A DNA stretch of 64,000 nucleotides, taken from the NCBI GenBank assembly GCA_949286725.1, contig CASECZ010000005.1, positions 5,648-69,647 on the forward strand. The letters run 5' to 3'. The notes under the pieces were generated by a model. It ran no database searches, had not been told where the DNA came from, and saw only the letters and a program-made list of their open reading frames with translations. A program made the position numbers and the translations under genes. Of this stretch, positions 12,649 through 32,414 are shown piece by piece (the stretch's first letter is position 1; each line of letters begins with the position of its first letter). Origin of the DNA: an uncultured Clostridia bacterium. Lineage in GTDB: Bacteria > Bacillota > Clostridia > Christensenellales > CAG-917.

Positions 12649-13746
12649 ATGGAAAGAAAACCCGTCATTCTTATTCTGACTTCGACGGACGAGTACGGCG
12701 ACGTTTCGGAGCGCATTGCCGACGCCGTTCGCTCTCTGGGCACGCACAACGCGGTTGTGGTGAATCAGACGCGCTACGACGGTTACGTGCGCAACAGCGC
12801 GTTTTACAGATGGCTGCGGAAGTATCTGTCCAAATATCCCGTCAAGGCAGAAAAAATAAAAACGCGACTTTCGGGGCTGAGCAGACGTTCCGACAAGGTG
12901 CGCGGCAGAAGCCGACGCATTGCCAATGCCGTCAAACGCTATAATCCCGAATTCGTGCTGACGGTCACGCCTTACGCGCTTGCCGCGCTTGCCGACGCCC
13001 GTGCCAAAATCGGCACGGACTGCAAGACCGTGCACGTCATCAATGCGTTCACTTACGACAAACACGATTTCCCCGCCGACGTCGCGGAAGGGTACATAGT
13101 CGAGAACTCCGACGTCAAGGACGCTCTCGTCGAGGCGGGCGCGGACGCGCGTCACACCATGGTCATGGGGTTGCCGTATCGCGTGCGCACGCTGACGGCG
13201 GACGAACGCGCGGTGCAGAGAGAGGCGAAAAGCCTGCCGCAAAGCCCCACGGTTTTTCTCAACGCGACCGAGGCGGAAAATGCCGAGGAACTGCTTGCGT
13301 TGCTCATCGACCAGGGCAAACTGATAAACACGGTGTGTTACGCCGACACGACCAAACTCATGGCAAAACTCCGCCGTCGCGCAGACGTCGCGTCAGAGCG
13401 CAACAGCGTGGCGATAATATCGCGTCGGGAACAGATAGACGAATTTCTGTCCGTCAGCGACGTTGTCATCACTCATTACGACCCGTCCGTCATATACAAG
13501 AGCATGCAACTGGGCAAACCCGTCATCGCCTTTTCCGATTTCGAGAGGGGCAAACGCGACCTCGAATATTTGCGGGAGCGCGGACTAATAAAATGCGCGG
13601 ACAAGAGCATCGACACGGTCGGGTTGCTGTACGATTTTCTGCAAGCGGACACCGCGGCGCAGTACGCCGAACGCGAACTCGCGCGCACGCAGATGTATTC
13701 CGTCGAGAACCTCGCAAACTATCTCACCGCGCCGGAATTGAATTGA
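12649..13746 (+). CDS. Divergent UgtP/MGDG-synthase-like (GT28-type) glycosyltransferase-fold protein
   Basis: 365 aa. Its overall layout resembles UgtP (N-terminal PVILILTS... strand; C-terminal ...ITHYDPSVIYKSMQLGKPVIA). The Gly-rich N-terminal motif is not conserved. Confidence 0.35.
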   Translation: MERKPVILILTSTDEYGDVSERIADAVRSLGTHNAVVVNQTRYDGYVRNSAFYRWLRKYLSKYPVKAEKIKTRLSGLSRRSDKVRGRSRRIANAVKRYNPEFVLTVTPYALAALADARAKIGTDCKTVHVINAFTYDKHDFPADVAEGYIVENSDVKDALVEAGADARHTMVMGLPYRVRTLTADERAVQREAKSLPQSPTVFLNATEAENAEELLALLIDQGKLINTVCYADTTKLMAKLRRRADVASERNSVAIISRREQIDEFLSVSDVVITHYDPSVIYKSMQLGKPVIAFSDFERGKRDLEYLRERGLIKCADKSIDTVGLLYDFLQADTAAQYAERELARTQMYSVENLANYLTAPELN

Positions 13747-13755
13747 AGGTACGTT

Positions 13756-15036
13756 ATGCCCGAAATAATTTCACTGGGAAAACTCGCAAAGAAACAAGGG
13801 TTCAGACTCGGCGACGACGTTGTGTCGCTGGGTGGCTACGAGATGAGGGACGTCCTCGACTATCTCTATTTCGACAACGAGGAGAAGTTCGACGCCGAGG
13901 TAATCCGCGACGGCAAAAAACACACCGTCAAAGTGCGTAAAGCCGCAAAAGACAGCCTCGGGCTCGAATTCGCCTGCGAGATGAAACCCATGCATTGCCG
14001 CAACAAGTGCGTGTTCTGTTTCGTCGACCAGCTGCCGAAAGGACTGCGCGACACCCTGTACGTCAAGGACGACGACTACCGTTACAGTTTCATAAGCGGC
14101 TGTTACGTGACGCTGACCAACCTGACGGACGCCGACATCGACAGAATAATCAGATTGAAGCTTTCGCCCATATACATATCCGTGCACGCCTTTACGGACG
14201 ACGTGCGCAGACGCCTCGTCACCAACCCCGCGACGGACAAACTCATCGACCGTATGCGCAGGCTGGGAGAGATCGGAATACGCATGCACACGCAACTCGT
14301 CGTCGTCCCAGAAATCAACGACGGGGAGGAACTGGAAAAGAGCATCCGCGGTTTGCGGTCGGTGCAGGGCGTGGAGACCGTCGCCGTCGTTCCCGTGGGG
14401 CTTACCGAACACAGGGAAGGACTGGCGCAAATCCGAATGTGCACGCGCGACGAAGCACTGGCAACCGTTCGCGCGGTGGAAAAACTCAATGCCGAGTTCG
14501 GCGGTTTCTGTTGGTGCTCGGACGAGTATTACGTCAAGGCGGGGCTCAATCCGAGAGAGTATTCCTACTACGGGGATTTCGAGCAGATAGAAAACGGAGT
14601 GGGACTGTTCGCGGAGTTCTACGACAACGTCGACTACTCGCTGTCGGAGGCGCCCGCAATCGACCTCGGCAAGAAAATCGGCTTTGTGACGGGCGTTGAT
14701 TTCGCGCCCTTCCTGCGCGAGAAGGTAAAGGACGTAGACGCCAAAATAGGCACTTCAAGCACCGTTTTCGGCATAGTAAACAACTTTTTCGGCAAAACAA
14801 TCACGGTTGCGGGGTTGGTCACCGCGGGCGACATAATGCGACAGGTCGACGCAAAAGGGCTTGACGCAATCGTCATTCCCGACAATATGCTCAAAGAATT
14901 CGGCAACGTGTTTTTGGACAACGTGACCGTGGACGAGGTTTCCTCGAAGCTGGGTGTTCCCGTCATCGTCGTGCCGCACAACGGCGCGGATTTTACGGGG
15001 GTCATCGTCAACCATTTTACAGGAGAGGGATTATGA
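13756..15036 (+). CDS. DUF512 domain protein (PDZ plus radical-SAM-like)
   Basis: CRNKCVFCFVDQLPKGLRDTLYVKDDDYRYSF motif. Shows the conserved position immediately upstream of der. Confidence 0.8.
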   Translation: MPEIISLGKLAKKQGFRLGDDVVSLGGYEMRDVLDYLYFDNEEKFDAEVIRDGKKHTVKVRKAAKDSLGLEFACEMKPMHCRNKCVFCFVDQLPKGLRDTLYVKDDDYRYSFISGCYVTLTNLTDADIDRIIRLKLSPIYISVHAFTDDVRRRLVTNPATDKLIDRMRRLGEIGIRMHTQLVVVPEINDGEELEKSIRGLRSVQGVETVAVVPVGLTEHREGLAQIRMCTRDEALATVRAVEKLNAEFGGFCWCSDEYYVKAGLNPREYSYYGDFEQIENGVGLFAEFYDNVDYSLSEAPAIDLGKKIGFVTGVDFAPFLREKVKDVDAKIGTSSTVFGIVNNFFGKTITVAGLVTAGDIMRQVDAKGLDAIVIPDNMLKEFGNVFLDNVTVDEVSSKLGVPVIVVPHNGADFTGVIVNHFTGEGL

Positions 15037-29114: not shown

Positions 29115-29264
29115 AACTGGGTTTTGCTCATCTCAAATCAAGTAGAGCAGAGCGGTACGAATACAGATGTTTGCTTTTTGTCCGCTTTGTAGTGCCCGTG
29201 TTTTCGATTGTCGGATTATCAATAATCCACAAATCGTCACCATCTGCAGTAAACTTGTCAGGAA

Positions 29265-29317
29265 AAAGAAAAAGAGCACTTGACGTGCTCTTTTTCTGGT
29301 GACCCACCGGAGATTCG
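29265..29317 (-). repeat. Displaced copy of the tRNA-Lys(UUU) 3' end (C56 to CCA, 29297-29317) plus its terminator hairpin (29265-29296)
   Basis: 53/53 identical to 29468-29520. Confidence 0.9.
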
Positions 29318-29467
29318 TAGGAAGTCCAACCGGACTTCCGTAATAGCGAATTGCGTGCATCTGTTGGCGCAACTTGCTTTGCGCCGCACGCAATCAGCGT
29401 CAGTCCGGACTTGTCCGGAGTTCTCTCCGAAGGAGTGCTTACTGCGTAAGCAAATCTCCGTCGGAAT
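29318..29467 (-). other. ORF-less insertion carrying a conserved hairpin module (E-motif); candidate structured RNA or miniature insertion element
   Basis: Lies between the two 53-bp repeats. Positions 29338-29403 are 65/66 identical (in inverted orientation) to 31208-31273. Four hairpins; no credible ORF. Confidence 0.5.
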
Positions 29468-29499
29468 AAAGAAAAAGAGCACTTGACGTGCTCTTTTTC
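29468..29499 (-). terminator. Terminator hairpin of the five-tRNA operon (also the proximal half of the 53-bp repeat)
   Basis: GAAAAAGAGCAC-gtcaa-GTGCTCTTTTTC directly after CCA; symmetric A and T runs. Confidence 0.65.
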
Positions 29500-29575
29500 T
29501 GGTGACCCACCGGAGATTCGAACTCCGGACCATCGCATTAAAAGTGCGGTGCTCTACCTGCTGAGCTAGTGAGTC
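29500..29575 (-). tRNA. tRNA-Lys (anticodon UUU)
   Basis: GACTCAC...CGCACTTTTAATGCG...CGGAGTTCGAATCTCCGGTGGGTCACCA; cloverleaf fits, CCA encoded. Confidence 0.92.
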
Positions 29576-29580
29576 ATTTC

Positions 29581-29655
29581 TGGCAGGGGTAGCTGGATTC
29601 GAACCAACGAATGCCAGAATCAAAATCTGGTGCCTTACCGCTTGGCGATACCCCT
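29581..29655 (-). tRNA. tRNA-Gln (anticodon UUG)
   Basis: AGGGGTATCGCCAAGCGGTAAGGCACCAGATTTTGATTCTGG...GGTTCGAATCCAGCTACCCCTGCCA. Confidence 0.92.
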
Positions 29656-29687
29656 TTGACTCGGTAAGACCGAGATTTGAGTCAATG

Positions 29688-29765
29688 TGGGGTGAGTAGT
29701 GGGATTCGAACCCACGGCCTTCAGGGCCACAACCTGACGCGCTAACCAACTGCGCTATACCCACC
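29688..29765 (-). tRNA. tRNA-His (anticodon GUG) with encoded G-1
   Basis: GGTGGGTATAGCGCAGTTGGTTAGCGCGTCAGGTTGTGGCCCTGA...GGGTTCGAATCCCACTACTCACCCCA. Confidence 0.92.
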
Positions 29766-29769
29766 ATAA

Positions 29770-29846
29770 TGGCGAGCCAGAAGAGATTCGAACTCCCGAC
29801 ACACGGCTTAGAAGGCCGTTGCTCTATCCTGCTGAGCTACTGGCTC
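29770..29846 (-). tRNA. tRNA-Arg (anticodon UCU)
   Basis: GAGCCAGTAGCTCAGCAGGATAGAGCAACGGCCTTCTAAGCCG...GGGAGTTCGAATCTCTTCTGGCTCGCCA. Confidence 0.92.
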
Positions 29847-29851
29847 AAAGT

Positions 29852-29925
29852 TGGAGCGGGTGATGGGAATCGGACCCACGCGACCAGCTTGGAAGGCTGG
29901 TATTCTACCATTGAACTACACCCGC
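29852..29925 (-). tRNA. tRNA-Gly (anticodon UCC), T-loop TCCGATT (C at position 55)
   Basis: GCGGGTGTAGTTCAATGGTAGAATACCAGCCTTCCAAGCTGG...GTGGGTCCGATTCCCATCACCCGCTCCA. Confidence 0.85.
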
Positions 29926-29970
29926 ACGTGTTCCGAGCGCACACCATAAGGCTATTTTCGATGCTTGAAG

Positions 29971-29999
29971 ATTTTACCATACTAAAATGCGCTTGTCAA
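29971..29999 (-). promoter_or_regulatory. Promoter of the Gly-Arg-His-Gln-Lys tRNA operon
   Basis: On the minus strand: TTGACA, 17-nt spacer, TAAAAT, about 45 nt upstream of tRNA-Gly. Confidence 0.55.
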
Positions 30000-30487
30000 C
30001 GATTTTGACATCTTATGACGCAAAGAAAAATGCACGACAGCACTCATTAATAACTATTCGAAGATTTGAAGAAAGAATTTGATTTGTATGGAGGTATCGA
30101 TAAAGTTTTACAACACGATAAGTGTTATATTTTGTCTTACAATCTGCAATGTAAAACACGATACGTGTATATAATATTTTTTTACATAATAATATCCCTT
30201 CCGATAGCGCCGTTTTACTGTCATATCGGCAAATTTAACACACGAAACGTATTTTATATATTTGTGGTATTCTGCCATTACGCATCGACAAACCTGATTA
30301 GACAGGGCGGCTGTAAGACTCCATATGAGATTCGACTGTGAGCATCTTGCTTTCCGAATTTAGGTGCCATTGAAATTTTGATAGAAAATCGTAGAATTAA
30401 CTGATAATACACAACAAAAAAACGGGGAATCTTAAATTGTACGTTTTGGCGTGCCGAAACAACATAAAAAAGTCTATACAGCAGATA
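30000..30487. other. AT-rich non-coding island between the two tRNA clusters
   Basis: By eye, individual 60-nt lines are about 25-35% GC, against about 55-60% in the flanks. Only a TTG-initiated 91-aa ORF of low-complexity composition is present. Confidence 0.6.
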
Positions 30488-30500
30488 ACGCGCAAATAAC

Positions 30501-30532
30501 CTCTGCGCAAATGGTGCAGCCGAAGGGACTTG
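30501..30532 (-). repeat. Displaced copy of the tRNA-Leu(UAG) 3' end (C56 to CCA) plus part of its terminator
   Basis: 32/32 identical to 30698-30729. The adjacent terminator arm is degenerate. Confidence 0.9.
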
Positions 30533-30697
30533 CTCCGCTTGGCTTGTCACCTTACACACGCACTGCACAGGATGACACACACACTCGCACTCCTTTCCGT
30601 TGCCCGCGCTATCACGCCTGGGCGGGGCAACAATTCTTATGGATTGTTGCCTTTTCCGCCCGTTCAAGTCCCGTATAATGAATAATGCGCAGAGAGT
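30533..30697 (-). other. ORF-less insertion behind tRNA-Leu (different sequence family from the Lys inserts)
   Basis: Bounded by the 32-bp repeats. Contains a long hairpin GGGCGG-aaaa-GGCAACAAT...ATTGTTGCC-CCGCCC, a GT-rich tract, and an inverted 11-nt copy of the tRNA T-arm. Confidence 0.5.
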
Positions 30698-30708
30698 CTC
30701 TGCGCAAA

Positions 30709-30791
30709 TGGTGCAGCCGAAGGGACTTGAACCCATACGGTTTCCCACCGGAACCTAAATCCGGCGCGTCTGCCAATTTCGCCACGGCTGC
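30709..30791 (-). tRNA. tRNA-Leu (anticodon UAG)
   Basis: GCAGCCGTGGCGAAATTGGCAGACGCGCCGGATTTAGGTTCCGG...ATGGGTTCAAGTCCCTTCGGCTGCACCA; long variable arm. Confidence 0.88.
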
Positions 30792-30916
30792 AAGCCACTT
30801 TATTATATCATAATCGCCCAAGATGTAAAGCAAAAGCCCTCTGCCACGGAAAATTGCACAATTAGCGAAAAATCTCTTGCTTTTTTTACAATAGTTTGTT
30901 ATATTAGTACTCGCTC

Positions 30917-30991
30917 GCGGGAGTGACTCAGTGGTAGAGTGTCACCTTGCCAAGGTGAAAGTCGCGGGTCCGAATCCCGTCTCCCGCTCCA
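30917..30991 (+). tRNA. tRNA-Gly (anticodon GCC), T-loop TCCGAAT (C at position 55)
   Basis: GCGGGAGTGACTCAGTGGTAGAGTGTCACCTTGCCAAGGTGAAAGTCGCGGGTCCGAATCCCGTCTCCCGCTCCA. Confidence 0.88.
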
Positions 30992-31040
30992 TTCCAAAGT
31001 TAGCGACGATGACCGCAAATTGCGTATTCGTCGCGAAAAT

Positions 31041-31116
31041 GCGCCCTTAGCTCAGCTGGTAGAGCAACTGACTCTTAATCAGTGGGTCCCGGGTTCGAAT
31101 CCCTGAGGGCGCACCA
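31041..31116 (+). tRNA. tRNA-Lys (anticodon CUU)
   Basis: GCGCCCTTAGCTCAGCTGGTAGAGCAACTGACTCTTAATCAGTGGGTCCCGGGTTCGAATCCCTGAGGGCGCACCA. Has one C50:U64 mismatch in the T-stem. Confidence 0.85.
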
Positions 31117-31224
31117 AAAACACCGCTAAATGCGGTGTTATTCTTTTGCCCGAAGGGATTTATATTTCCAATATCCGCCTTATGGCGGAGAACCCGGGCA
31201 CACCCGGCTGACGCTGATTGCGTG
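31096..31224 (+). repeat. First copy of the 200-bp-period repeat. Contents: tRNA-Lys(CUU) C56 to CCA, terminator, spacer, and the 5' part of the E-motif
   Basis: Aligns to 31296-31426. 96/98 identical over the first 98 nt, then a swapped hairpin, then an identical CTGACGCTGATTGCGTG. Confidence 0.9.
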
Positions 31225-31295
31225 CGGCGCAAAGCGAGTTGCGCCAACAGATGCACGCAATTCGCTATTACGGCAGCCGCTGGGCTTGCTGCCTA
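31175..31295 (+). other. Complete E-motif copy (hp0, AGAAC, hp1, 66-nt core, hp3, TA) ending at the displaced tRNA-Lys(CUU) 3' fragment
   Basis: Core 31208-31273 is 65/66 identical to the reverse complement of 29338-29403. The flanking hairpins are compensatory variants of those at 29318-29435. Confidence 0.5.
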
Positions 31296-31426
31296 CGAAT
31301 CCCTGAGGGCGCACCAAAAACACCGCTAAATGCGGTGTTTTTCTTTTGCCCGAAGGGATTTATATTTCCAATATCCGCCTCATGGCGGAGAACTCCGGAC
31401 AAGTCCGGACTGACGCTGATTGCGTG
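31296..31426 (+). repeat. Second, truncated repeat unit. Contents: displaced tRNA 3' fragment 31296-31316, terminator, spacer, hp0, hp1, first 17 nt of the core
   Basis: Similarity to the full unit stops after GATTGCGTG at 31426. Its hp1 is the TCCGGAcaagTCCGGA variant seen at the Lys(UUU) locus. Confidence 0.85.
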
Positions 31427-31538
31427 AGCGCTAACGGAAAAGCTGCTGACAAACCGATATAACAGGATTTCGTTGAAATAAAACGCGTGGTTAGAATAGT
31501 GAAATACGGCTTATTTTTACCGATTGGTGTTGAAATGT

Positions 31539-32414
31539 TCAGCGTTCGGAAGAGGACATTGCCTGATATTCCGAAGGGGTAAGCCCTGTGACCTGTTTGA
31601 ATTTGCGTATGAAATACGCGGGGTCGTCGTAGCCGACTTCCGCGGCGACGGCTTGTATTTTGATGCTGCGGTTTTGGAGCAGTTCTTTTGCTTTGCTTAT
31701 TCGCATTGAGAGTATATACTGCGACAACGTGGTTTTCATTGTCTGGCTGAACAGTCTGGAAAAATAGGTCGGGCTCACCATACACAGCGCCGCGAGTTCG
31801 TGTATCGTGATTTGCGACTTGTAATGTTGTTCGATATAGCGCAGGGCGGGTTGCAATTTGTTGTAATTGCTCGCGGTTTTCGTCGAATGGTCTTCGAGTT
31901 CCAGCAGAATGCCGAAATGATTGATGTAATCCGCAAGTTTTGAAACGAGTTTGGACATTTCCAAAAAGCGTTCTTCCTCGACTTGCGGCATATTGTCATA
32001 TATTTTTTTGAGTTCGGGGTGGTTTTCGAGGGAAATGGGTGCGTAGATATAGTCCAGCTTGTCATCGGAAATGTTCGAACGGGTGGACCCGCCGCAGATT
32101 GCACCGATGTGTTCCCCCTTATAAAAGAGAGGCACAGAAAAATCTATAAGTCCGTAAGCGCACTTGTAGTAGTGGGTTTTGCCTCGGCGGGCCGCTTCGA
32201 AGGATGCGTGACTTGCCGCCGCAAGGCAAGCCGTGCGGATTGCGGGGTCCTGGCGCGCGCACTTGCAGAAAATGGCGTCGTTGCAGGGGTAGATGATGAT
32301 GTTGCCGAGCGTATCCAACACGCACAGATTCATCCCCGTTGCCTTTGCAACGGAGTCCAGAGTCAATGTAAGCTTGTCCAGCGATACTATCTCTTCGAGT
32401 CTGTGTGAAGTCAT
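31539..32414 (-). CDS. AraC-family transcriptional regulator with N-terminal PocR sensory domain
   Basis: 291 aa. PocR-like N-terminus (CKCARQDPAIRTAC...YYKCAYGLIDFSVPLFYKGEHIGAICGG) and a C-terminal AraC HTH (ITIHELAALCMVSPTYFSRLFSQ...GYDDPAYFIRKFKQVTG). Confidence 0.85.
   Translation of the reverse strand: MTSHRLEEIVSLDKLTLTLDSVAKATGMNLCVLDTLGNIIIYPCNDAIFCKCARQDPAIRTACLAAASHASFEAARRGKTHYYKCAYGLIDFSVPLFYKGEHIGAICGGSTRSNISDDKLDYIYAPISLENHPELKKIYDNMPQVEEERFLEMSKLVSKLADYINHFGILLELEDHSTKTASNYNKLQPALRYIEQHYKSQITIHELAALCMVSPTYFSRLFSQTMKTTLSQYILSMRISKAKELLQNRSIKIQAVAAEVGYDDPAYFIRKFKQVTGLTPSEYQAMSSSER

Follow-up and report, generated by a model that had tools for sequence, protein, structure and literature searches.

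A 64,000-nucleotide (nt) stretch of DNA from an uncultured Clostridia bacterium of the Christensenellales (contig CASECZ010000005.1), called the window below, contains three transfer RNA (tRNA) genes that are each followed by a unit of about 200 bp without any credible open reading frame (ORF), beyond which lies a displaced copy of the 3' end of the same tRNA. The units at tRNA-Lys(UUU), tRNA-Leu(UAG) and tRNA-Lys(CUU) share an anatomy of direct and inverted copies matched to their own tRNA, the two Lys units are homologous, the units are polymorphic among strains and recur in related lineages, and they are independent of the integrase-bearing elements found at the same tRNAs. They are most likely miniature integrating elements of a kind not yet described. 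The full reading that we prefer, and put forward tentatively, is that they are ORF-less, tRNA-restoring integrative mini-elements, each specific for the 3' end of one tRNA gene, which are moved in trans and accrete in tandem.

The tRNA genes were called with ARAGORN and Rfam, and both agreed on nine in the window. The three genes in question and the direct repeats associated with them are as follows.

29500-29575, minus strand: tRNA-Lys(UUU), intact, called by ARAGORN and Rfam
30709-30791, minus strand: tRNA-Leu(UAG), intact, called by ARAGORN and Rfam
31041-31116, plus strand: tRNA-Lys(CUU), intact, called by ARAGORN and Rfam
29257-29317 and 29460-29520: Lys-UUU direct repeat, 61 nt, 95% identical, 53 exact, spacing 203
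30485-30532 and 30682-30729: Leu direct repeat, 48 nt, 90% identical, 32 exact, spacing 197
31096-31198 and 31296-31398: Lys-CUU direct repeat, 103 nt, 96% identical, spacing 200
31203-31224 and 31405-31426: Lys-CUU further repeat pair, offset 202

A first-pass annotation of the window had reported three tRNAs with a displaced C56-CCA fragment plus terminator at periods of 203, 197 and 200, and the repeat finder together with the tRNA calls confirmed it. The exact repeat begins at T-loop nucleotide C56 in all three loci (29520, 30729 and 31096), is preceded by GTTC in each, and runs from C56 through CCA into the terminator hairpin; the T-loop of tRNA-Leu is non-palindromic, yet its boundary is likewise C56. 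tRNA-Lys(UUU) is the last gene of a Gly-Arg-His-Gln-Lys operon, and from C56 (29520) onwards it forms part of the proximal repeat copy. The annotation had also described each repeat as C56-CCA plus the tRNA's own terminator; this was right as to content and wrong as to the limit, since the similarity of the copies extends beyond the terminator into the unit. On the reading preferred here, the different repeat lengths (53, 48 and about 130 nt) would have a simple cause: a repeat would be made up of the tRNA part and the portion of the preceding unit that is still left. The Lys-CUU repeat reaches about 130 nt because its downstream copy is an older, incomplete unit. As had been stated before, the inserts hold no credible ORF: those ORFs that lie over them also cross tRNA genes and were judged spurious, and none is confined within the 197-203-bp units.

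The anatomy was clearest in the Lys-UUU unit, which is made up of the following parts and is bordered by the last three features in the list.

29318-29520, minus strand: Lys-UUU unit, 203 nt, consisting, when read in tRNA orientation, of C56-CCA, terminator, inverted T-arm, hairpins and core, and a terminal 'TA'
29470-29500, minus strand: proximal terminator hairpin, bidirectional and borne by the unit, AGAAAAAGAGCAC GTCAA GTGCTCTTTTTCT
29451-29465, minus strand: inverted copy A, TCCGA CGGAGATTTG, complementary to tRNA positions 56-65 and 67-70
29424-29451, minus strand: hairpins P2 (GCTTAC gca GTAAGC) and P3 (CTCC ttc GGAG), which interrupt the inverted T-arm copy
29404-29423, minus strand: inverted copy B, GAACTCCGGAC, the exact inverse of tRNA positions 46-56
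29346-29403, minus strand: CUGAC junction and long P5/P6 helix, the 95%-conserved core common to the Lys-CUU unit
29318-29339, minus strand: subterminal hairpin P7 (GGAAGTCC ggtt GGACTTCC), then the terminal 'TA', directly upstream of the displaced fragment
29297-29317, minus strand: displaced tRNA-Lys(UUU) fragment, C56-CCA
29267-29297, minus strand: distal terminator copy of Lys-UUU
29249-29264, minus strand: degenerate remnant of a unit start, 16 nt

Inverted copy A can take either the tRNA or the displaced fragment as its pairing partner. Inverted copy B overlaps hairpin P4 (TCCGGA caag TCCGGA), which is formed by the inverted 46-56 segment and a direct copy of positions 46-52. The units at the other two tRNAs were resolved in the same manner.

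31096-31295, plus strand: Lys-CUU unit 1, 200 nt, C56-CCA first and terminal TA last
31119-31139, plus strand: terminator of Lys-CUU unit 1
31148-31161, plus strand: inverted copy A of Lys-CUU unit 1, GCCCGAAGGGATTT
31162-31188, plus strand: two hairpins of Lys-CUU unit 1
31190-31198, plus strand: inverted copy B of Lys-CUU unit 1, GAACCCGGG
31194-31207, plus strand: hairpin P4 of Lys-CUU unit 1
31213-31265, plus strand: core P5/P6 of Lys-CUU unit 1
31272-31293, plus strand: P7 of Lys-CUU unit 1
31296-31426, plus strand: Lys-CUU unit 2, incomplete, with displaced C56-CCA, terminator, inverted copy A, hairpins, P4 and CTGACGCTGATTGCGTG, after which it departs from the family
30533-30729, minus strand: Leu unit, 197 nt, C56-CCA first and a poorly structured remainder last
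30686-30706, minus strand: terminator of the Leu unit
30662-30672, minus strand: inverted copy of tRNA positions 53-63 in the Leu unit, GGGACTTGAAC
30620-30661, minus strand: hairpin of the Leu unit, 42 nt
30512-30532, minus strand: displaced tRNA-Leu fragment, C56-CCA
30485-30532, minus strand: displaced Leu fragment together with a diverged distal terminator copy

The Lys-UUU and Lys-CUU inserts have a core of 74 nt in common, with 95% identity and in the same orientation relative to their own tRNA, and are homologous; their tRNA-derived parts and hairpins P2-P4 and P7 differ. The last 39 nt of Lys-CUU unit 2 (31388-31426) are 100% identical to the Lys-UUU unit. Moreover, the 71 nt that separate unit 1 from unit 2 complete helix P5, of which the other strand lies within the repeat, and unit 2 is thus a truncated unit and not native flank. 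Between unit 2 and the PocR/AraC gene, window positions 31427-31540 are probably a gene remnant: they resemble the 3' end of a DUF4097-family gene, of which an intact copy occupies the corresponding site in Candidatus (Ca.) Limadaptatus (L143:14132-14644; L-numbers are labels of loci from other assemblies that were compared with the window). In the AT-rich spacer adjoining the tRNA operon, paired palindromes (TACAACACGATAAGTGT / TAAAACACGATACGTGT) were seen at 30100-30170 and are kept in the sister species (L110:6800-6865); they may be operator sites for a regulator. The gene content of the window is otherwise housekeeping (SpoIVA, EngA, RuvABC, QueA, Tgt, SecDF, RecJ, sugar metabolism).

Five unit types were compared, namely the three of the window, that of the sister species L110 and that of Ca. 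Limadaptatus, and in all five an inverted copy of the cognate T-arm follows the terminator after 10-16 nt. It represents tRNA positions 58-65 and, exactly, 46-56 in Lys-UUU, 58-64 and 48-56 in Lys-CUU and 53-63 in Leu, with exact inverted runs of 7-11 nt; complementary runs of this kind arose in 36, 139 and 1 per 5000 shuffles at the three window loci, and a further value was 3 per 5000. Together with the T-arm and acceptor strand of the tRNA, the inverted copy makes a forked palindrome of 80-105 nt that is capped by the terminator hairpin. At every locus NCCA stays unpaired in this structure, and NCCA plus 5-12 nt are skipped between the terminator stem and the pairing of the inverted copy. 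Non-Watson-Crick positions in the palindrome helices are G-T/G-U wobbles on the tRNA-sense strand. The forked hairpins reached z-scores of -3.8 to -9.2, and the whole integrated Lys-UUU unit z = -11.95. Folded as RNA, the Lys-UUU and Lys-CUU inserts scored -6.5 and -5.4 against shuffled sequence, and their common fold comprises a closing helix, two small hairpins, a GAGAAC junction, P4, a CUGAC junction, the long P5/P6 helix, a UAUUAC junction, the subterminal hairpin P7, 'UA' and the displaced tRNA fragment. Compensatory changes were counted in 11 of 56 consensus pairs between the two Lys inserts, which amount effectively to two lineages. Outside the palindrome, the Leu and L110 units folded no better than shuffles (z = -1.6 and -0.5).

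Searches anchored on PnuC and PocR/AraC, the proteins encoded at the flanks, gave this locus in over 15 assemblies of the same species, at an identity of at least 98.5%. Six of the loci (L008, L010, L012-L014 and L100) are precise empty sites for the Lys-UUU unit and keep one repeat copy; the unit is single in the window, L009, L007 and L011, and it stands as a tandem pair in L016, where the copies are 3 single-nucleotide polymorphisms (SNPs) apart and the one nearer the tRNA is identical to the window allele. The CCA of tRNA-Lys(UUU) joins window position 29249 directly in L015 and L101, the terminator and the 16-nt remnant being gone, and a clustered change in the loop sets the proximal terminator copy apart from the distal one in L007 and L011. 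At Lys-CUU, strains hold 0.65 or 1.65 units, unit 1 being absent in L015/L107 and L102, and the Leu unit is present in all strains seen. The discrete alleles break at the exact repeat boundary. The precise empty sites that the first-pass annotation had proposed to look for were thus obtained, and tandem copies with them. Two smaller deletions were also noted: L100 is without 60 nt (window 29599-29658) covering most of tRNA-Gln(UUG), and L108 is without 28 nt (window 30889-30916) just upstream of tRNA-Gly(GCC); from their sequences they look like either recombination between similar tRNA segments or assembly collapse.

Units of other makes were found at tRNA-Lys(UUU) in related Christensenellales, the order in which the names on Ham1 homologues also place the organism of the window. 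In the sister species L110, whose PnuC is 76% identical, at least 2.5 units of 179 nt come after tRNA-Lys(UUU); each comprises A59-CCA, a terminator unlike that of the window, the T-arm in inverted form (GAGATTCGAAC, positions 53-63) and then about 100 nt. Its tRNA-Leu lacks the Leu unit and has a single unrelated terminator. Strains of Ca. Limadaptatus stercorigallinarum and its close relatives (L131-L143) differ in the number of 183-nt units arrayed in tandem behind tRNA-Lys(UUU), which is 1, 2, 3 or 4; the units come in several variants, which in the L137 array are ordered a-b-a-c, and in each of them tRNA positions 49-71 are present as an almost complete inverted copy. A genome near to Ca. 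Limadaptatus, GCA_036306345.1, has an identical Ham1 protein and the same synteny. At tRNA-Lys(UUU) the three lineages have unrelated terminators. In the unit families, GAGAAC precedes a GC hairpin made of T-stem sequence; CTGATTGCG is common to the unit types of the window and Ca. Limadaptatus, and the L110 and Ca. Limadaptatus units both contain GGGGTTCGGCGGCT and the right end GCATAT. These equivalent arrays in two related lineages, together with the homology of the two Lys inserts, support the recurrent process that had been proposed on the first pass. The synteny with PnuC as anchor was gone below about 75% identity, and no tRNA cluster was found in three look-ups of more distant PnuC homologues.

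When profiles of the Lys type and the Ca. Limadaptatus type were run with nhmmer on 1.28 Mb of related loci, no further copies were obtained except one remnant, in the Ca. Limadaptatus locus L143. This remnant adjoins tRNA-Leu(UAG) (E = 0.06) and is the homologous, orthologous counterpart of window unit 2: it has the same terminator type, AGGGATT, a different hairpin, P4 in the form CCCGGG acacat CCCGG, and CTGACGC, and it meets the same flank as window unit 2 (..CAAACCGAT..GTTGAAATAAA, the 3' end of the DUF4097-like gene). Between L143:13560-14060 and window 30700-31140, the block of Leu, Gly(GCC) and Lys(CUU) tRNAs has switched orientation with respect to its flanks, and one 27-nt terminator sequence stands, in inverted orientation, behind both tRNA-Leu and tRNA-Lys(CUU) of L143; this arrangement suggests that the block was inverted by recombination between terminators. 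Recombination within and between terminators and units does occur. In some Ca. Limadaptatus strains (L131/L135/L138, about 12930-14591), the first unit is followed by GGTGGGTCAC and then by an island with helix-turn-helix, SecB-like and Gp49/HigB-like genes, which is another element using the acceptor end of tRNA-Lys(UUU).

Integrase-bearing elements occupy two of these tRNAs in other strains. A tyrosine-integrase element lies in tRNA-Lys(CUU) (L007:6640-8036, L010:6280-7429, L102:5877-7100 and L104) and measures about 9 kb in the one strain (L010/L102) where a single contig includes both ends. The block of identity begins in the anticodon loop, at 31072 (window counterpart 31072-31130), the element brings its own, different terminator, and its arm has repeats of the TTGATGTCAA type and no inverted T-arm. 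A degraded remnant of this family without integrase, a genuine scar, was seen behind the tRNA-Lys(CUU) of the sister species (L110:6345-6900 and L111). A prophage with a large serine recombinase uses tRNA-Lys(UUU) (L011:5100-6507, L128:1121-2594, L129:2615-4081); its junction, between AGTTCGAATAACTCCTTGT and GTGGGTCACCA, is the T-stem/acceptor boundary, and it adjoins chromosomes with and without the unit (L011, L128). In nhmmer searches neither element held a core copy or any sequence in common with the units. Since the crossovers differ and no sequence is common, the units are not scars of these elements. As a parent or mobiliser of the units, the serine-recombinase prophage was rejected because its junction is at the T-stem/acceptor boundary, it lies beside both unit states and its end is unlike the core; the tyrosine-integrase element was rejected as parent for its repeat starting at 31072, its different terminator and its arm repeats. 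In L129, an 89% relative of the serine-recombinase prophage, the recombinase gene is followed by an apparent phage attachment (attP) palindrome in which the tRNA acceptor end is reversed. At L010:6280-6330, adjoining the integrated element, the D-arm region of tRNA-Lys(CUU) has an internal tandem duplication of 19 nt (TAGCTCAGCTGGTAGAGCA twice), which is either a real disruption or an assembly error.

Several other identities were tried for the units and set aside. Group I or II intron, ribozyme, T-box and retron readings had no motif support, the unit ends in A and not G, and no Rfam match was obtained. At permissive E-values, an Rfam search of the window locus and one Ca. Limadaptatus array returned only tRNAs at threshold, all others scoring less than half the gathering score. 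A primer-binding site fails because the repeat runs past CCA into the terminator, and for the same reason the copy must have been made at the DNA level and not from mature tRNA. A guide RNA, in the form of a TnpB/Cas12-like scaffold with a 21-nt guide, was rejected as well: the first 10 guide nucleotides were paired in every fold and no nuclease gene was found.

On the preferred reading, each module would carry a replacement 3' part of its tRNA (T-loop to CCA) and so keep the tRNA intact, its own bidirectional terminator, an inverted copy of the T-arm and acceptor strand of the same tRNA that forms the long forked palindrome with the tRNA part, and about 75-105 nt of further hairpin-rich sequence. 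It would enter the 3' third of the tRNA by site-specific recombination, catalysed by a recombinase encoded elsewhere, by analogy a tRNA-targeting tyrosine recombinase or alternatively a single-strand enzyme of the HUH type. The newest unit would then adjoin the tRNA, older units would be displaced downstream and shortened by deletion, and copy number would subsequently drift through homologous recombination between the repeats. We infer the role of the palindrome as a recombination site from its structure, and likewise the excision and integration cycle and the trans-acting enzyme. That the terminator travels with the unit follows from the terminator-less allele and from the unrelated terminators in the three lineages, and the tyrosine-integrase element at Lys-CUU, which likewise imports a terminator, offers a parallel.

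A number of observations weigh against this reading. The enzyme has not come to light: Pfam scans of 40 window ORFs gave no integrase, transposase or reverse transcriptase (nor, among the same ORFs, an HUH transposase), and for these 40 the earlier statement that the window lacks an integrase stands; no recombinase adjoined any unit in about 1.3 Mb of related loci. An autonomous relative bearing the core was sought in viral contigs (scanned three times), in JGI metagenomes (with TGATTGCGTG..CACGCAATT) and in GTDB representative genomes (with a junction-motif pattern); the hits, judged by inspection or BLAST, were chance hits, although the collections may not contain the family or the motifs may have been chosen too narrowly. 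Phage and plasmid collections searched with BLASTN gave no match. Mobilisation in trans by a tyrosine integrase of the T-loop class, as the first-pass annotation had suggested, is accordingly not established, and the full-length relatives it had proposed to look for, with a recombinase beside the same sequences, were found neither in the related loci nor in the collection scans. The repeat start moves from family to family (C56 in the window, A59 in L110, about G65 in Ca. Limadaptatus), which would not be expected from one fixed crossover and weakens the T-loop crossover of that annotation. Every polymorphism seen could also be produced by RecA-type recombination between repeats of 50-130 bp, so active mobility is likewise not established. 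The 39-nt tract is 100% identical between the two Lys loci within divergent flanks, and ectopic gene conversion could therefore yield the common core without transposition. The unit-2 remnant at the same flank in different genera indicates that an incomplete unit predates the split of the genera, and is old and vertically inherited. Lastly, SNPs within the species strike paired positions about as often as chance, which leaves the integrated copies without a sign of purifying selection. We do not place more confidence in the mini-element reading because of the missing enzyme and autonomous relative, the polymorphisms explicable by homologous recombination, the unfixed repeat start and the evident gene conversion between loci.

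Several of these same points speak for local structural evolution without any mobile element, a possibility that we regard as real but rather doubtful. Here, intramolecular template switching, in the way of quasipalindrome 'correction', would lengthen the terminator palindrome and so make and refresh the inverted T-arm copy; template switching at the palindromic T-loop (TTCGAA) would give the direct duplications, unequal crossing-over the unit number, and ectopic gene conversion the similar cores. All tRNA-derived segments, direct and inverted, would then match the local tRNA with no co-evolution required, and the simple head-to-tail arrays of 1-4 copies, the a-b-a-c order in L137 that suggests unequal exchange, the conversion-like 39-nt tract, the remnant kept at the same flank across genera and the want of a recombinase in the 40 window ORFs or beside units in related loci all fit. 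Simple extension of a palindrome, however, should leave the inverted copy contiguous with the terminator stem, and NCCA plus 5-12 nt are skipped; nor does it agree well with the terminator-less allele, the unrelated tRNA-Lys(UUU) terminators of three lineages, the clustered differences between tandem copies and between paired repeat copies, the non-repeated 71 nt that complete helix P5 and so mark unit 2 as a truncated unit, or the C56 boundary at the non-palindromic T-loop of tRNA-Leu. An unlikely alternative is a functional structured RNA, or a cis-acting hairpin of the tRNA 3' trailer, expressed by read-through or from an unrecognised start, with the duplication incidental; its closing helix might mimic the acceptor/T stem with NCCA free, perhaps borrowing the enzymes of tRNA end processing, or it might pair with the T-arm in read-through precursors. 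The strong folds (-6.5, -5.4 and -11.95 for the whole unit), the G-U wobbles of the closing helix on the tRNA-sense strand and the NCCA left unpaired at every locus are in its favour, as are hairpins that survive complete replacement of their sequence (between the two Lys units, and between the window and the Ca. Limadaptatus remnants) and the terminator, inverted copy, P4 and CUGAC kept across genera at Lys-CUU. Yet no promoter-like site was found inside any unit and each begins just past an intrinsic terminator, the antisense strands form folds of almost equal strength, the Leu and L110 units do not rise above shuffles, none of 42 predicted pairs is compensatory across eight Ca. Limadaptatus units, no Rfam family matches, SNPs break pairs, and unit-free strains exist.

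A further rival holds that prophages or islands of the ordinary, integrase-bearing kind once occupied these tRNAs and that the units are the scars of their deletion; the tRNAs are indeed hot spots in other strains, with the tyrosine-integrase element in Lys-CUU, the serine-recombinase prophage in Lys-UUU and the scar in the sister species. We consider this very improbable for the units, because those elements cross over elsewhere (31072 in the anticodon loop; the T-stem/acceptor boundary) and have no sequence in common with them, and the integrase element arm shows TTGATGTCAA-type repeats in place of an inverted T-arm. Both Lys units also keep the same order of parts and no leftover coding sequence, which is not expected from independent deletions. 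The comparison that the first-pass annotation had named as able to refute it, with integrase-bearing elements at the same sites, hence turned out in its favour. That collapsed or mis-joined repeats near tRNA genes produced the units is scarcely credible. Many contigs of related species do end just past the tRNA cluster and some scaffolds have N gaps inside the arrays, but over 15 independent assemblies, made from different samples, show identical junctions and the same discrete alleles, including the two-copy allele with SNP-differing copies, and the junctions, which the annotation had wished to see verified, are therefore not an assembly artefact.

If the units are mobile as preferred, then gene-less modules of about 200 bp that regenerate the tRNA, bring a terminator and stack would be the counterpart, among integrative elements, of miniature inverted-repeat transposable elements (MITEs), and recombination at tRNA sites would be open to parasitism by minimal DNA. 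The tRNA-matched inverted copy suggests a testable hypothesis of site recognition, in which a folded single strand may be the form recognised. Should local recombination prove to be the true cause, the loci would be an unusually clear natural case of palindrome-driven tandem amplification at tRNA terminators. In practical terms, the units break short-read assemblies at tRNA clusters, and they may be mis-scored as island boundaries by tools that seek displaced tRNA fragments.

tRNA genes are classic landing sites for islands and prophages, and to our knowledge the elements described at such sites all carry their own integrase. The units resemble tRNA islands and prophages with a tyrosine integrase of the T-loop class (for example Ms6 and Islander-type elements) in regenerating the tRNA 3' part with a displaced fragment at the far end, in the T-loop start of the repeat (in the window), in having their own terminator, in tandem stacking, and in the precise empty sites in relatives (Lys-UUU, Lys-CUU unit 1 and Leu). 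They differ in being about 200 bp and not kilobases long, in having no integrase or ORF, with no cognate integrase identified, in holding an inverted copy of the target T-arm that makes the long palindrome, and in a repeat start at C56, A59 or about G65 according to family. Regeneration of the tRNA and the displaced 3' fragment at the far end are described for genomic islands in tRNA genes (PMC4383910), and bacterial attachment (attB) sites in the T-loop for phage Ms6 (PMC1762012). An attP core with inverted core-type sites around a 6-8-bp overlap was not recognised by inspection: the P7 3' strand and TA to the left of the distal repeat are unlike the T-stem 5' strand, and the inverted copy lies about 55 bp off, on the other side. 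Another parallel is given by cis-mobilisable elements (CIMEs), which are integrase-less derivatives, flanked by attachment (att) sites, of integrative and conjugative or integrative and mobilisable elements (ICEs/IMEs), are known from streptococci, are kilobases long and can be recognised as descendants of a co-resident ICE or IME. Like them, the units have att-like flanking repeats and no recombinase, and movement is presumed to depend on an enzyme in trans; unlike them, they are an order of magnitude smaller, are highly palindromic and have no known parent. Related autonomous elements at the same att site, as CIMEs have, were not found at these tRNAs, where the elements differ in crossover and sequence. 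From MITEs the units differ in their repeats, which are 32-130 nt long and variable, and in an inverted repeat that is internal, between the tRNA part and the post-terminator copy, and not at both ends.

Integron attC sites and CTX-phi attP(+) are recombination sites made by the folding of a single DNA strand; most integron cassettes carry an ORF, and CTX-phi uses XerCD at dif. We know of no such recognition of a folded single strand in Firmicutes. The units could, though we think this decidedly unlikely, be cassettes of an integron-like or CTX-like system in Clostridia. In such a model the single-stranded unit would fold so that the inverted copy pairs with positions 46-52 (P4) and 56-71 (the long palindrome), rebuilding a duplex imitation of the T-arm recombination site from which the remainder of the unit would branch off precisely where insertion takes place; a T-arm-specific recombinase would exchange one strand with the tRNA gene, replication would complete integration, and units would pile up at the tRNA T-loop as their entry site. 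Integron cassettes and CTX-phi are indeed like the units in joining variable sequence to a conserved palindromic fold with the repeat boundary at the stem base, and in small size, tandem arrangement, a newest copy presumed to lie by the entry site and strand-specific wobbles. The differences are that no IntI or attI was seen (the 40 window ORFs held no tyrosine recombinase), that the core is GTTCGAA or GTTCAAG and not GTTRRRY, and that a single-stranded intermediate of the units is putative.

Hairpin-recognising HUH enzymes would also be compatible with the fold of this model, and the other comparison is with the mini-insertion sequences (mini-IS) and palindrome-associated transposable elements (PATEs) derived from HUH transposons (IS91; IS200/IS605). 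In IS91, ends of 89 and 82 bp (about 170 bp in all) suffice for transposition in trans; members of the family carry subterminal palindromes, pass through a single-stranded circle as intermediate and target GTTC/CTTG (PMC13181058). The mini-elements proposed here share with these the GTTC in the T-loop and a hairpin, P7, that lies 2 nt from the unit end. They depart from them in their direct repeat of at least 21 nt, HUH elements having neither target duplication nor target sequence, and the active-strand target GAAC/CAAG of IS91 would put the insertion between positions 52 and 53 and not between 55 and 56. Neither of these models, integron/CTX or HUH, fits the units in detail.

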